Part shown: in pieces, positions 23,893-44,880 of the stretch
Numbering within the stretch: position 1 is the first letter of the stretch
Layout of the letters: every line of letters begins with the position of its first letter
NCBI GenBank assembly: GCA_049513715.1
Contig: JBEKVV010000001.1
Location: forward strand, 128,001 to 192,000
Source of the DNA: Candidatus Bathyarchaeia archaeon
GTDB taxonomy: Archaea > Thermoproteota > Bathyarchaeia > 40CM-2-53-6
Direction: 5' to 3'
Length of the DNA stretch: 64,000 nt
Position numbers and translations under genes: made by a program
Notes under the pieces: model-generated
Seen by the model: only the letters and a program-made list of their open reading frames with translations
Databases searched by the model: none
What the model was told of the DNA's origin: nothing

Positions 23893-23959
23893 CTGCAATT
23901 AACAGGTCAGGCTTTGTAGGGAAAGCCTAATTTTCAGCTTCGGCATGCGATGAAGGTGA

Positions 23960-24060
23960 AGGTACCGGGGGAGCTGGGGTGACCCGGCTGAGAGGACGGC
24001 TAAGGTTGCCGTCGACCCCTGAGAACCTGATCCGGGTAATGCCGGCGTAGGGAGTGTCCA
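23960..24060 (+). ncRNA. TPP riboswitch aptamer
   Basis: GGGGGAGC...GCTGAGA...GACCC...AACCTGATCCGGGTAATGCCGGCGTAGGGAG matches the THI-box consensus; lies upstream of thiT. Confidence 0.95.
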
Positions 24061-24163
24061 AAATGGTAACACGCAAAGGAATCTGTTCCGGGTACGACTC
24101 TGAAAGAGTACAATCCACCGTCCCTGGTAACCTTCTGCAAACCAATGGAGGTGAAATTGGACG

Positions 24164-30712: not shown

Positions 30713-30850
30713 GGCCGCCGTAGCGTAGAGGAGTCCAACAACTCCACGAAACTTGGTAGCGTACAGACCATAAATGGGTACAAGGCTGTGGACCCTGCGG
30801 GGTGGGTTCAAAGCGCCCTCAAAAACGGCGTGAAACTCCCACCGGCGGCC
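30713..30850 (+). tRNA. tRNA-His(GTG) with three BHB introns (15/16, 29/30, 59/60)
   Basis: Removing 30729-30751, 30767-30783 and 30813-30836 gives G GCCGCCG TA GCGT AGCTTGGTA GCGT A CAGGG CTGTGGA CCCTG CGGG GTGGG TTCAAAT CCCAC CGGCGGC C. G-1:C73 is encoded, CCA is not. Confidence 0.9.
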
Positions 30851-30931
30851 CTCAAATTCCGGATGATTTTTCTGGCACTTGAACTCTAGAGATTGCAGTC
30901 TGTACGGATGGGATGTACAATCATAGATCAA

Positions 30932-31271: not shown

Positions 31272-31388
31272 GGGCCGGTAGTTCAGCCTGGTATGCCAGA
31301 TCCTTACTGGGCCAAAGAATGTCCGGTTTGCAAGTTCTTACACCAAGAGTCCGGAAGGTCGCGGGTCCAAATCCCGCCCGGTCCACCA
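31272..31388 (+). tRNA. tRNA-Ala(TGC) with two BHB introns (21/22, 37/38)
   Basis: GGGCCGG/CCGGTCC acceptor with G3:U70; introns 31295-31316 and 31333-31349; mature anticodon loop TTTGCAT; CCA encoded. Confidence 0.9.
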
Positions 31389-34586: not shown

Positions 34587-34700
34587 AGCCCGGTGGTGTA
34601 GTGGACAGTTCAAACCCGCAGAAGCATAGAGGGCTTTGGACCCTCCGACGGGAGTTCGAATGGCATTGAAGAATGCCCGAAGGTCTCCCCCGGGCTACCA
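34587..34700 (+). tRNA. tRNA-Gln(TTG) with two BHB introns (D-loop 20a/20b, 59/60)
   Basis: AGCCCGG/CCGGGCT acceptor; GAGGG CTTTGGA CCCTC; introns 34607-34621 and 34661-34683; CCA encoded. Confidence 0.92.
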
Positions 34701-37846: not shown

Positions 37847-40120
37847 CTAGCTGGCGAGCGTGTACTCTATTCTCTTGTCCGCGCTCCGCCTCTTTGACTC
37901 GGGCCAAAGATTGAAGGGGAGGAGCCCGTAGGACGCACGGCCAATGTAGGTCAGTTTGTCAGACCCGCATTTGCCGCATTTCGGACCTGTACCCCGGTCG
38001 GTGTTGCCGCAGGCAGTACAAGCGGAGTAGTTCGACGTGTAAGTCAGGAACTTGCAGCCTGCTTGAAAGGCCGCCTCAGTAGTCTTCAGTAAACCCGAGC
38101 CCGAAGAATCTGGCGCCGTACAAATTACGCTCAAATGTCCACCTGGTGTCGCTGATTGGAATTTCGATTCAATTCTTAGCCTAATCTCAATGGGCACCTT
38201 AGCTGTGAGTGGAACGGTGGGCATATCCGTATAGTGAAACAAACCCCGTGACCCATCAGCTACAATTACTGCTCTACCATACTCTTCGATGTCCAATTCA
38301 GCAAGCCGTCCCACAGCTTCATCTCCTGGCCGCTGCGAAACGCGAATTCTCATGTCCGCTTCTTCCGAAGCATCTTTGACGAGCTTCGATGATTCCTCCA
38401 GAATCCTCAAACCGAAATCCACTGCAATCTTGTCCCGATCTATCCTCTGCCCTGTGTGAGCCTCCACCGCCTCGCTAATACCGATCAGAGACAGATTGTA
38501 GGAAGCATTCTTCTCGTAAAAGTAAGGAGCCGAGGAGCTTCCACCTGCCAGCAGAGGCAGCAGTGGCTGCTTGAGCCGTTCGCCGACAAACCTCTTCTTT
38601 GCTTTGAAGCCCTCCACACTTAATGAGATCGATTCCTTGAGTAATGCAAGGAACTTCTCATCGCTCTTTTTTGAGTTGTAAGCAATCCGTGGAAGGTTGA
38701 GGAAGATCGTATCCATGCTCCCCGTTCTAATGCAGTCCGCGTCCCAGTGGCCAGTCCAGTCGTCAGAAATCCTTAGCCCTGTCGCGGAGTAGCTGCTCTT
38801 CTCCCCGTCGCCGATTAGCTCAAAGTAGGGAACACTCCTTGAAGCTGCGAGCTCATGTGCTTTTTCCAAAATCTTCCTAGTTTTCGGGTCGTCTAGCTCC
38901 TTGTGTCTGATTCTTATGATCAGGTGGGGCTGGATTGGCGGCCTAGCCTCAGACACTGTTCGGAAGGCTTCAACGGTTGCCTCGGCCAGCCTGAAGCTCT
39001 CATCTTGGAAATCTGCGTAATGGCCGCTAACTTTTCCTCCGGGCCCAATCGCTTCCTCTTGTGAGAGGAATTCTGGCATTTCTAGGTCAATGGTGAACGA
39101 GGTACCTGATTGTGGGCTGCCTGAGGTAATGTCTCTTCTAATTGATGTGAGAAAATAGGTTAGTGCCTTCGTCGTATCATCCAATTTCCTTCCTCGAACG
39201 TACGGGGCAAGGAATGTGTTGAGATATTCGAGCGTTTGTTCACCGGAGACTTCTCCCGAACCCATGTCGAGCACTTGTCTCACCAGAGTCAAAGCTCCCT
39301 CGAATGTTTCTGGAGGCTCTGTTCCTGGAAGGCTATTGCGTAAGAAATAGCGAAGGTCATGGACGATTTCGTTTGGTTTGAGTATCCAATTCTCTAGGTT
39401 TGCGATGTGTATCGATCCTGATAGGTGTGCGTCAGCCAGCTTATGGGGTAAGCAATTCAGCAAGACATACTCGGAGAGCACGGATTTAGCGGAAGAACGA
39501 TGAACGAAGTCCGCACTTAACTGGCTATCGCCCGCATTTCGAATAAGCTGAGCGACATCATAGACGGGCATGCCGAGCCTCGTGAGTTTGTGGCGATACT
39601 CCTCCAGCCTCTTCTCGATGAGGATGGCGTTTACGAATTCGCGAATCAAAGGCGCTGTCAAGTACACAGTCCTCAACCTAATGAGGCGGTCCTCTGCTTC
39701 CGCGGCAATTTCATCAGCAATTTCCTGCGGGACACCTGCCTCCACCACAAGGGATTTGGCGATCTTGTTGCGGTGAAATTCCTCTATCGCGAGTCTGGAT
39801 GTACGAACGTAGAGTTTACCGCGCTTCACGTTCACATATTCGTCCATGTCTCTTGCGAATGAGACGATCATTCGGCCGAGTTCAGTCAGCTCGTACTTCT
39901 TTGTCTTCTTATCCAGCGTGACCAAGCCAGTGCTTGTTAGACTTCGAAGATGGTAGACGAATTTGCCAGCGTCGCGGACAGGGTCGAGCTTCAGTTGAAA
40001 CATTATTTCTGTATACTGGAGTGAGCCCTTGATCGAAAGCAGTCGCAATATTTGTAGTCGAACGGGCGCCGACGCGGCGTCAAAGATGCTGGCACCGACT
40101 CTCTCCGATGAACGTTGCAA
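37847..40120 (-). CDS. ArsR-type HTH + ATP-cone + class III ribonucleotide reductase (NrdD)-like protein, catalytic residues absent
   Basis: RLQILRLL...YHLRSL...YELTELG (wHTH); VRTS...EEFHRNKI...TAPLIRE (ATP cone); DAHLSGSIHI, LNLPR, TPGGH, CTAC...CGKC (NrdD body). Confidence 0.88.
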   Translation of the reverse strand: MQRSSERVGASIFDAASAPVRLQILRLLSIKGSLQYTEIMFQLKLDPVRDAGKFVYHLRSLTSTGLVTLDKKTKKYELTELGRMIVSFARDMDEYVNVKRGKLYVRTSRLAIEEFHRNKIAKSLVVEAGVPQEIADEIAAEAEDRLIRLRTVYLTAPLIREFVNAILIEKRLEEYRHKLTRLGMPVYDVAQLIRNAGDSQLSADFVHRSSAKSVLSEYVLLNCLPHKLADAHLSGSIHIANLENWILKPNEIVHDLRYFLRNSLPGTEPPETFEGALTLVRQVLDMGSGEVSGEQTLEYLNTFLAPYVRGRKLDDTTKALTYFLTSIRRDITSGSPQSGTSFTIDLEMPEFLSQEEAIGPGGKVSGHYADFQDESFRLAEATVEAFRTVSEARPPIQPHLIIRIRHKELDDPKTRKILEKAHELAASRSVPYFELIGDGEKSSYSATGLRISDDWTGHWDADCIRTGSMDTIFLNLPRIAYNSKKSDEKFLALLKESISLSVEGFKAKKRFVGERLKQPLLPLLAGGSSSAPYFYEKNASYNLSLIGISEAVEAHTGQRIDRDKIAVDFGLRILEESSKLVKDASEEADMRIRVSQRPGDEAVGRLAELDIEEYGRAVIVADGSRGLFHYTDMPTVPLTAKVPIEIRLRIESKFQSATPGGHLSVICTAPDSSGSGLLKTTEAAFQAGCKFLTYTSNYSACTACGNTDRGTGPKCGKCGSDKLTYIGRASYGLLPFNLWPESKRRSADKRIEYTLAS

Positions 40121-40265
40121 CTCAATACCGCCTAGAAGGTGAATTACAAGTACTATAGGCATGGGGTTATGTTTAAAAAATTGTAGTTGCGTGCATCTCG
40201 ACAGATTACGTACAGTTTATTTGAGATTAATCAAGCCGTGGCGCCGTCGACAGCCGAGAGTGGAG

Positions 40266-40792
40266 ATGAAGAACTTGGGCGAATTGCGCATGAACGAAGC
40301 CGATTACGCGAAACTCGCAGAGCTAGAAGACGCCTTCGAAAGGAAGGACCTTGAATACTTCAAGACTTTCCTAGGAAAATCGAGTGGTCTTCCCTTGCTG
40401 TTGCGTGTTCACTCTGTCTGCATGTTAGAGCACATGGGAAACGAAGACATTGTGAAGGCACTTGGTCAGGTCTTGAGAGATGACCCTAGCCCACTAACAA
40501 GGCATGAAGCAGCCTTCACCCCGGCCAGCTAGGTTTCCGCTCAGCCGTACCAGCACTTGTTGAAGCAATGCTCGAGGACGAGAGCCCCATTGTACGGCAT
40601 GAGTCGGCGGTAGCCCTAAGCTCGATTGGGGCAGAAGATGCGCTCCCTGAACTGGAACGAGCAATCAACGATAAGAACGAGGATGTCAGCAACTCTGCTC
40701 TTATTGCCTCCGAATATTTGACCTATCTGAGTCGAAAACGTGATAGTGTCAGCAAAGTCGGAGCGACCTTGAAACCTAAGATTCGCCTATAG
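40266..40792 (+). pseudogene. HEAT-repeat protein resembling half of deoxyhypusine hydroxylase; 1-nt frameshift (real or sequencing error)
   Basis: RHEAAFT continues as GQLGFRSAVPALVEAMLEDESPIVRHESAVALSSIG if one base is added at 40519-40522. Confidence 0.75.
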
Positions 40793-40875
40793 TAAGGAAT
40801 CTGCTGCGCGTCGGTATGAGGCACTGGCCGCGATCGCGGAAGGATTTAAGGAAGTGGATGTTTCCTTGGGGATTA

Positions 40876-41046
40876 GGGGCGGTGGTCCAGACCGCGAGTC
40901 AACCCGCGTGGGGACAACTTGGTCTAAGATAGCGCGAGACGCCTTAAAACCGGTCTCGGGGCCAGTTGCCTGAAACGGCGAGCACACCGGTGATCGAGGG
41001 TTCAAAATGATCGCAAACGATCATGACAATCCCTCCCGCCCCACCA
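40876..41046 (+). tRNA. tRNA-Pro(CGG) with four BHB introns (15/16, 25/26, 37/38, 59/60)
   Basis: Removing 40891-40917, 40931-40948, 40961-40984 and 41007-41029 gives a 79-nt cloverleaf: GGGGCGG TG GTCC AGCTTGGTCTA AGAT A CCGGT CTCGGGC ACCGG TGATC GAGGG TTCAAAT CCCTC CCGCCCC A CCA. Confidence 0.9.
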
Positions 41047-44728: not shown

Positions 44729-44880
44729 TGGTAGCGGGGGGTGGATGTTCGGGCGTTCTTGTGGCCTTTCGAACCACCGTTTGAGGAGCCTTCGCGGCTC
44801 AATCTCAGGGTTTCTCGCCAGGATATGAGCCCTCCGCACTGAAGGGTTCTGCGGGTTAAACCTGGCTACCCCACCCCGCT
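44729..44880 (-). tRNA. Initiator tRNA-Met(CAT) with four BHB introns (29/30, 37/38, 47/48, 59/60)
   Basis: Removing 44832-44848, 44812-44823, 44780-44801 and 44746-44767 gives AGCGGGG TG GGGT AGCCAGGTTTA ACCC G CAGGG CTCATAA CCCTG AGATC GGTGG TTCGAAT CCACC CCCCGCT A CCA; A1:U72 and three G-C anticodon-stem pairs. Confidence 0.92.

Follow-up and report, generated by a model that had tools for sequence, protein, structure and literature searches.

A conserved and almost certainly functional tRNA-Pro(CGG) gene with four introns in a Bathyarchaeia archaeon

Introduction

Three introns are the maximum per tRNA gene in Thermoproteales, according to a 2014 review (PMC4033280) that covers Sugahara 2007/2008. 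Higher burdens are described for Asgard archaea, in which introns occur in 92-95% of tRNA genes and over half have several (PMC11291895). For three Asgard families, a 2026 preprint (bioRxiv 10.64898/2026.10.13.758758) reports an average of 2.2 introns per tRNA gene and at most five in any one; it states that splicing has been shown for none of these inserts, and it leaves their route of arrival open. The Freyrarchaeaceae stand at 2.42 introns per gene. Outside the archaea, the three introns of the Cyanidioschyzon merolae tRNA-Ile(UAU) are removed in an order that tracks motif stability, as RT-PCR demonstrates (PMC3728597). Our literature search, which covered sources outside subscription journals and most of these as listings, yielded no paper presenting Bathyarchaeia as an intron-rich or multi-intron tRNA lineage.

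Here we analyze a tRNA-Pro(CGG) gene interrupted by four introns, located in a window (the whole stretch of DNA that was analyzed) of 64,000 nucleotides. We conclude that the gene is real, conserved, and almost certainly functional. Its four introns are an extreme, above the older-review maximum of three and below both the Asgard five and the genome's own tRNA-Trp. A first-pass annotation had implied that four introns are novel and had proposed a literature check for four-intron archaeal tRNAs; the literature does report up to five per gene for Asgard archaea, and the implied novelty falls with it and with the five-intron tRNA-Trp of the same genome.

Gene Anatomy

The gene spans 40876-41046 of the window on the forward strand and comprises five tRNA exons and four inserts in 171 nt:

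40845..40850, +, TATA-like box TTTAAG, 31 nt before the mature 5' end, behind a purine-rich element
40876..40890, +, exon 1, tRNA positions 1-15; invariant in 19/19 copies of the genus, single copy in the genome
40891..40917, +, intron 1 at 15/16, 27 nt; HBh' motif, central GTCC/GGAC with 4/4 pairs, five inner pairs
40918..40930, +, exon 2, positions 16-25; one variable base among 19 copies
40931..40948, +, intron 2 at 25/26, 18 nt; HBh' motif, central TAAG/CTTA with 4/4 pairs, weakest motif of the four
40949..40960, +, exon 3, positions 26-37; anticodon CGG at 40957-40959, G37; invariant in 19/19 copies
40961..40984, +, intron 3 at the canonical 37/38 site, 24 nt; full hBHBh' motif, central CTCG/CGAG with 4/4 pairs
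40985..41006, +, exon 4, positions 38-59; one variable base among 19 copies
41007..41029, +, intron 4 at 59/60, 23 nt; central TTCA/TGAC with 3/4 pairs and a U54.C mismatch, strong inner and outer helices
41030..41046, +, exon 5, positions 60-76; discriminator A73, encoded CCA; invariant in 19/19 copies

The exons sum to 79 nt with CCA encoded (15+13+12+22+17) and the introns to 92 of 171 nt (27+18+24+23; 54%), which confirms the arithmetic of the first-pass annotation on both lengths. We parsed the locus with a beam search that takes only the gene ends and fits a cloverleaf with at most six introns bounded by bulge-helix-bulge (BHB) motifs. This independent parser placed the four-intron solution first, with a score of 97.5 against 82.0 for the next, a five-insert variant, and thereby returned the same sites (15/16, 25/26, 37/38, and 59/60) and helices that had been proposed from inspection. 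Nor did a better parse with fewer introns emerge, the best three-intron solution scoring 77.1 and destroying the anticodon arm.

Once the inserts are removed, an invariant-base cloverleaf with anticodon CGG, G37, A73, and CCA is present, and ARAGORN calls the 79-mer tRNA-Pro(cgg) with a score of 124.0, in agreement with the identity first assigned to it. Among 16 forms scored by ARAGORN in intron-free mode, with intron 4 set one base off, only the fully spliced one exceeded 100; the best of the 15 partly spliced forms reached 99.1. The unspliced gene escapes standard tools: ARAGORN found no tRNA in the window and Rfam had no match at the locus. Genomes of this kind are consequently given too few tRNAs and too low a quality grade. 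Elsewhere in the window, a TPP riboswitch lies at 23957-24071 (+; 68.5 bits).

Other architectures were considered and ruled out. A split or permuted tRNA is incompatible with five single-copy exons that are colinear within 171 nt, and a self-splicing group I/II or endonuclease-encoding intron with introns of 18-27 nt and the lack of an Rfam match at the locus.

When intron letters were shuffled with the junctions fixed (200,000 shuffles each, a post hoc null), motifs equal to or better than the observed ones arose at frequencies of 0.002, 0.00006, 0.003, and 0.010 for introns 1-4. The relatives that lack single introns, described below, are stronger evidence than this null.

Conservation within the Genus

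In a DNA search of 41 genomes, 18 of the 22 further members of the genus yielded a full-length copy, whereas all matches outside the genus were partial; the remaining 4/22, which are 76-96% complete, gave no hit to the gene. With exon anchors, all 19 genus copies parse into the same four introns. An unanchored parser with a narrow beam regained the four-intron parse in 11/19 copies and missed it in 8/19.

Across the 19 copies, only 2 of the 79 columns of the mature tRNA are variable; the introns exist in 15, 16, 17, and 18 distinct sequences, with length variation of 4 to 12 nt. Under the four-motif structure, 95.6% of the cells of the 19-copy alignment pair, versus 44-51% when the partners are slid. 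Four pairs change on both strands, each within the intron 2 or the intron 4 hairpin, and so back the intron hairpins; the central helices are without such support, and their exon side never varies. The outermost central pair is broken in 8/19 copies at intron 2 and in 13/19 at intron 4, and the motifs of these two introns are therefore often relaxed; all four central pairs form at intron 4 in 6/19 copies. The start of intron 3 is conserved, with its third base unpaired in 12/19 copies.

Upstream, TTT[A/T]A is found at -30 to -34 in 19/19 genus copies (2.8% per sequence in shuffles), and this TATA-like box presumably serves as the promoter. The gene directly 5' of the tRNA encodes a HEAT-repeat protein (window 40161-40792, +) and is matched at 15 of 18 other genus loci. 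It is split over two frames here; in the 14 relatives that match both parts, these share a single frame, and the break may be a frameshift or an assembly error. Beyond it, at 37847-40162 (-), lies a gene whose 771-aa product combines a winged-helix domain and an ATP cone with an NrdD-like body. One genome, G012, holds two four-intron copies (L003 and L117) with differing intron sequences on two contigs, which could reflect a strain mixture or a duplication.

Splice Motifs and Folding of the Precursor

An inner helix is present at all four introns of this genome, and an outer helix at introns 3 and 4 only; intron 4 counts as a relaxed motif under the rule of the 2026 preprint (bioRxiv 10.64898/2026.10.13.758758). 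Each central helix lies between two 3-nt bulges, where the cuts would fall. No exon base serves more than one of the four motifs; nested introns are thereby ruled out, and geometry forces no order of removal.

The D-arm needs a more careful statement. With intron 1 in the D-loop and intron 2 directly after base 25, neither strand of the D-stem is interrupted, and the three D-stem pairs are present in the RNAalifold consensus of the 19 unspliced copies. The earlier claim that the D-arm folds only after splicing is therefore too strong as worded; the part that stands is that the stem competes with two motifs. From the geometry, the D-stem should be mutually exclusive with the central helices of intron 1 (bases 10-13) and intron 2 (bases 20b-23). 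It would have to open before either intron could be cut, and a native D-loop would be impossible until intron 1 is out.

In the nearest-neighbor model, the fold with all motifs formed is less stable than the minimum-energy fold by 9-10 kcal/mol in this genome and by 5-16 kcal/mol across the 19 copies, and central-helix probabilities are mostly near zero. A rival helix that pairs bases 8-13 with the exon 3/intron 3 border reaches a probability of at least 0.7 in 13/19 copies. The motifs were not recovered when growing prefixes were folded instead (median probabilities of 0.26, 0.09, and 0.00 for introns 1-3). EndA probably captures the motifs from a mixed fold ensemble.

Taken in isolation, the motifs of introns 1-4 have median energies of -13.6, -3.6, -9.6, and -11.9 kcal/mol across the 19 copies, the values for introns 3 and 4 being calculated with the exon stems included; the intron 2 module of this genome stands at -2.6 kcal/mol against its median of -3.6. 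By this analysis, intron 2 appears the likeliest slow or late splicing step, since its motif is the weakest here and the order of removal in C. merolae tracked motif stability (PMC3728597).

Splicing Enzymes and Proposed Pathway

Two EndA genes are present in the genome, and the alpha subunit has Tyr, His, and Lys at its active site, which we take to be the catalytic triad. It is nearest to crenarchaeal catalytic subunits (E 3e-41) and, when aligned to 3p1z, 3ajv, and 2cv8, places a lysine of the Crenarchaea-specific loop where Aeropyrum pernix has K44, a residue required for relaxed motifs (PMC3241643; PMC5829648). The second subunit is without the His loop and looks like a non-catalytic structural partner, and the enzyme is predicted to be of the two-subunit (alpha-beta)2 broad-specificity type. 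RtcB is also encoded.

A whole-genome search returned neither a duplicate of the gene nor a version free of introns: exons 1, 2, 4, and 5 are each unique, and no 16-mer spans a junction. Counts for a six-base anticodon pattern and for a nine-base Trp pattern stayed at chance level. CCG makes up 25% of the proline codons in long ORFs.

We are thus highly confident in a single functional tRNA-Pro(CGG) gene whose four introns are spliced by EndA and RtcB to yield a normal 79-nt tRNA. The gene would be transcribed from its own promoter as one precursor; strict or relaxed bulge-helix-bulge motifs would bound the four short introns for cutting by the two-subunit (alpha-beta)2 EndA; and RtcB would join the exons into the 79-nt product.

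Closed Junctions in Relatives

A pattern scan of contigs gave 65 loci, 18 of them with the four-intron layout. Every junction of the gene is closed in some relative with identical flanking bases, meaning that the insert is exactly absent from an orthologous gene at each of the four sites. The 25/26 junction is uninterrupted in genome G059 and in other families, and the 59/60 intron is absent from the sister genera and from families f6 and f9. Relatives without D-arm introns have the same D-arm, its C13.A22 mismatch included.

The two halves of the gene differ in their distribution. Among copies from seven other families of the order, the 37/38 intron is present in 27/27 and the 59/60 intron in 22 of the 26 with a readable T-loop; the 15/16 insert is absent in 26/27, the one present differing in sequence, and inserts on the 3' side of the D-stem are absent (0/27). 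The three sister genera show the reverse in their 16 complete copies: the 15/16 intron is present in 16/16 and a second insert near positions 23-25 in 14/16, with the 37/38 and 59/60 introns in 0/16. For genus g2, 12 of 20 matches were taken in, and three rows were excluded (a chance match, an assembly-gap copy, and a 5' fragment). The exon-1 pattern matched in 0/10 genomes of genus g15, and with two mismatches allowed, five genomes (g15/G016) gave 24 places, none with the exon-1 sequence of known copies. By eye, intron 1 looks like its counterpart in genus g2, and similar sequences to introns 3 and 4 are seen in families f9 and f7.

Several observations accompany this survey. The titles of the 18 four-intron records comprise 14 Bathyarchaeia or Bathyarchaeota, one 'archaeon', and three bacterial names; records L053, L062, L094, L045, and L035 carry bacterial titles and yet an archaeal intron-bearing tRNA gene, and their titles or bins are probably wrong. 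Family members differ in the position of the D-stem's 3'-side insert, which is found at 23/24, 24/25, or 25/26 (L022, L023, L101, L109, and genus g1), a shift that may reflect sliding or separate gains, and several 22/23 and 23/24 introns have an apparent 4-nt bulge on the 5' side. At G063:C26:29744 (L113), there is a tRNA-Pro 5' half that lacks the 15/16 intron; about 1 kb downstream of it follows a complete gene whose introns differ (L114, 30715), as would be the case for a displaced half.

With kinship taken from labels only, the simplest history would have the two 3' introns old in the order, the D-arm introns arising in the family, and the sister genera losing both 3' introns. We tentatively offer a bolder interpretation, which we consider possible but rather unlikely: the genus is a further independent hotspot of tRNA introns matching the richest Asgard families, and the gene is a mosaic of halves with separate histories. 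The two 3' introns would come from the ancestor of the order, the two D-arm introns would have been gained in the family, and the sister genera would have lost the 3' introns jointly, as replacement of the whole 3' half would give. If true, half-gene replacement is a route by which tRNA introns are gained or lost in blocks, and it bears on the question of intron arrival left open in the 2026 Asgard preprint (bioRxiv 10.64898/2026.10.13.758758).

tRNA Introns across the Genome

By candidate search, parsing, and hand-set ends, we assembled 46 tRNA genes, a full archaeal set that includes tRNA-Pro(CGG). ARAGORN confirmed the expected anticodon for the 46 spliced products, that of Thr(UGU) after hand placement of its second intron; the Thr-UGU and Trp parses were picked by expected anticodon over top score, and several boundaries are approximate. 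The 46 genes hold 111 introns, or 2.4 per gene, with at least one in 45 and at least two in 38. Four introns occur in seven genes (Gln-CUG, Glu-CUC, Leu-CAG, Lys-UUU, initiator Met, Pro-GGG, and Pro-CGG), and introns make up 62% of Leu-CAA and 65% of Trp, compared with 54% of tRNA-Pro(CGG). The five tRNA genes of the window are all interrupted, by 15 introns in total. Besides tRNA-Pro(CGG), the features of interest are:

window 30714-30854, +, tRNA-His, three introns
window 31272-31388, +, tRNA-Ala(UGC), two introns
window 34587-34700, +, tRNA-Gln(UUG), two introns
window 44729-44880, -, initiator tRNA-Met, four introns at 29/30, 37/38, 47/48, and 59/60; 3.7 kb from tRNA-Pro(CGG)
C1:372218-372443, -, tRNA-Trp(CCA), five introns at 10/11, 28/29, 37/38, 45/46, and 59/60, 149 of 226 nt; outside the window
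C3:93967-94108, -, tRNA-Phe, parsed with A at position 53 instead of G
C3:44654-44785, -, tRNA-Arg(UCU), parsed with C33 instead of U33
C4:128581-128724, +, tRNA-Arg(CCU), parsed with C33 instead of U33
C4:144551-144656, +, tRNA-Asp, 30-nt intron at 68/69 in the 3' acceptor strand

The five-intron layout of tRNA-Trp recurs in 15 of the 16 genus loci fetched (L165-L180), the other being cut by a contig end. Many stand-alone tRNA 3' ends, consisting of T-arm and acceptor strand, lie away from tRNA genes on contigs C1-C5. An origin of the four introns as copies of tRNA introns elsewhere in the genome was considered and is unsupported: of four tests, the closest pairing was that of intron 3 with the tRNA-Pro(UGG) intron at 45/46, and 14/300 shuffles matched it.

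Alternative Readings

The rival that deserves most weight would add an obligatory order of splicing set by folding, in which the rival helix and the D-stem mask introns 1-3 until one intron is removed or a protein remodels the RNA. We regard it as rather doubtful, and it refines the best explanation without excluding it. The prediction of the rival helix in 13/19 copies speaks for it, as does the retention of the intron 3 start even where its third base is unpaired (12/19), and the three-intron tRNAs of C. merolae provide a precedent of ordered removal (PMC3728597). The helix is built mostly from invariant exon bases, however, and hence offers no covariation; six copies do not favor it, the same intron 3 start occurs in families f7 and f9, which both lack D-arm introns, and the energy models ignore the enzyme and base modifications.

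Two further readings would deny the fully spliced product altogether. If some insert (likeliest intron 2 or 4) were retained or the gene had decayed, CCG would be read by wobble of tRNA-Pro(UGG). The weak motif of intron 2, the imperfect central helices, and the four of 22 genus genomes where the gene was not found all lean in this direction, and the 2026 preprint states that splicing has been shown for no such Asgard insert (bioRxiv 10.64898/2026.10.13.758758). We nonetheless judge it very improbable: the exons are near-invariant, the introns drift yet keep their hairpins, the promoter motif is kept, any retained insert brings the ARAGORN score below 100, and relatives show exactly the junctions in question in closed form. 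Least credible of all is a wrong parse, with fewer and longer introns or another anticodon, given the gap between the best three-intron solution and ours (77.1 vs 97.5) and given that the D-arm, anticodon loop, and T-loop can be read off unparsed, in identical form, from relatives with one or two introns. A functional gene with all four introns spliced therefore remains our preferred account.

Comparison with Known Systems

The occurrence of the same gene with one, two, three, and four introns in relatives forms a natural ladder on which intron gain, loss, and splicing order can be studied. With 45 of 46 genes interrupted and 2.4 introns per gene, this genome would place a TACK lineage alongside the Asgard families richest in introns, and such a match would weaken the idea of a burden special to the relatives of eukaryotes. 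The gene compares with the closest described systems as follows:

(i) Thermoproteales (PMC4033280) have in common with our locus short introns with BHB or relaxed-BHB motifs at canonical and non-canonical sites. Their introns are cut by an (alpha-beta)2 EndA with a Crenarchaea-specific loop, and the type predicted here is alike. The differences lie in number (four introns in tRNA-Pro(CGG) against a maximum of three) and in sharing, with intron families common to several tRNA genes in Thermoproteales and no clear sharing found here. A further difference is that the motifs of tRNA-Pro(CGG) are not nested.

(ii) Asgard archaea resemble our genome in that most tRNA genes are interrupted, many at non-canonical sites of the D-arm and T-arm and by introns of about 22 nt, and in that standard annotation misses intron-bearing tRNA genes. 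They are a different lineage; the 2.4 introns per gene reported here belong to a single Bathyarchaeia genome, and the stem 'Bathyarch' does not occur in the accessible portion of the preprint (bioRxiv 10.64898/2026.10.13.758758).

(iii) The tRNA-Ile(UAU) of C. merolae (PMC3728597) is similar in layout: its motifs are independent of one another, and they occupy the D-stem, the 37/38 site, and the T-loop. It differs in its eukaryotic enzyme, in having three introns, and in that its splicing was followed by RT-PCR, whereas splicing of the four introns of tRNA-Pro(CGG) is deduced from the gene and its relatives.
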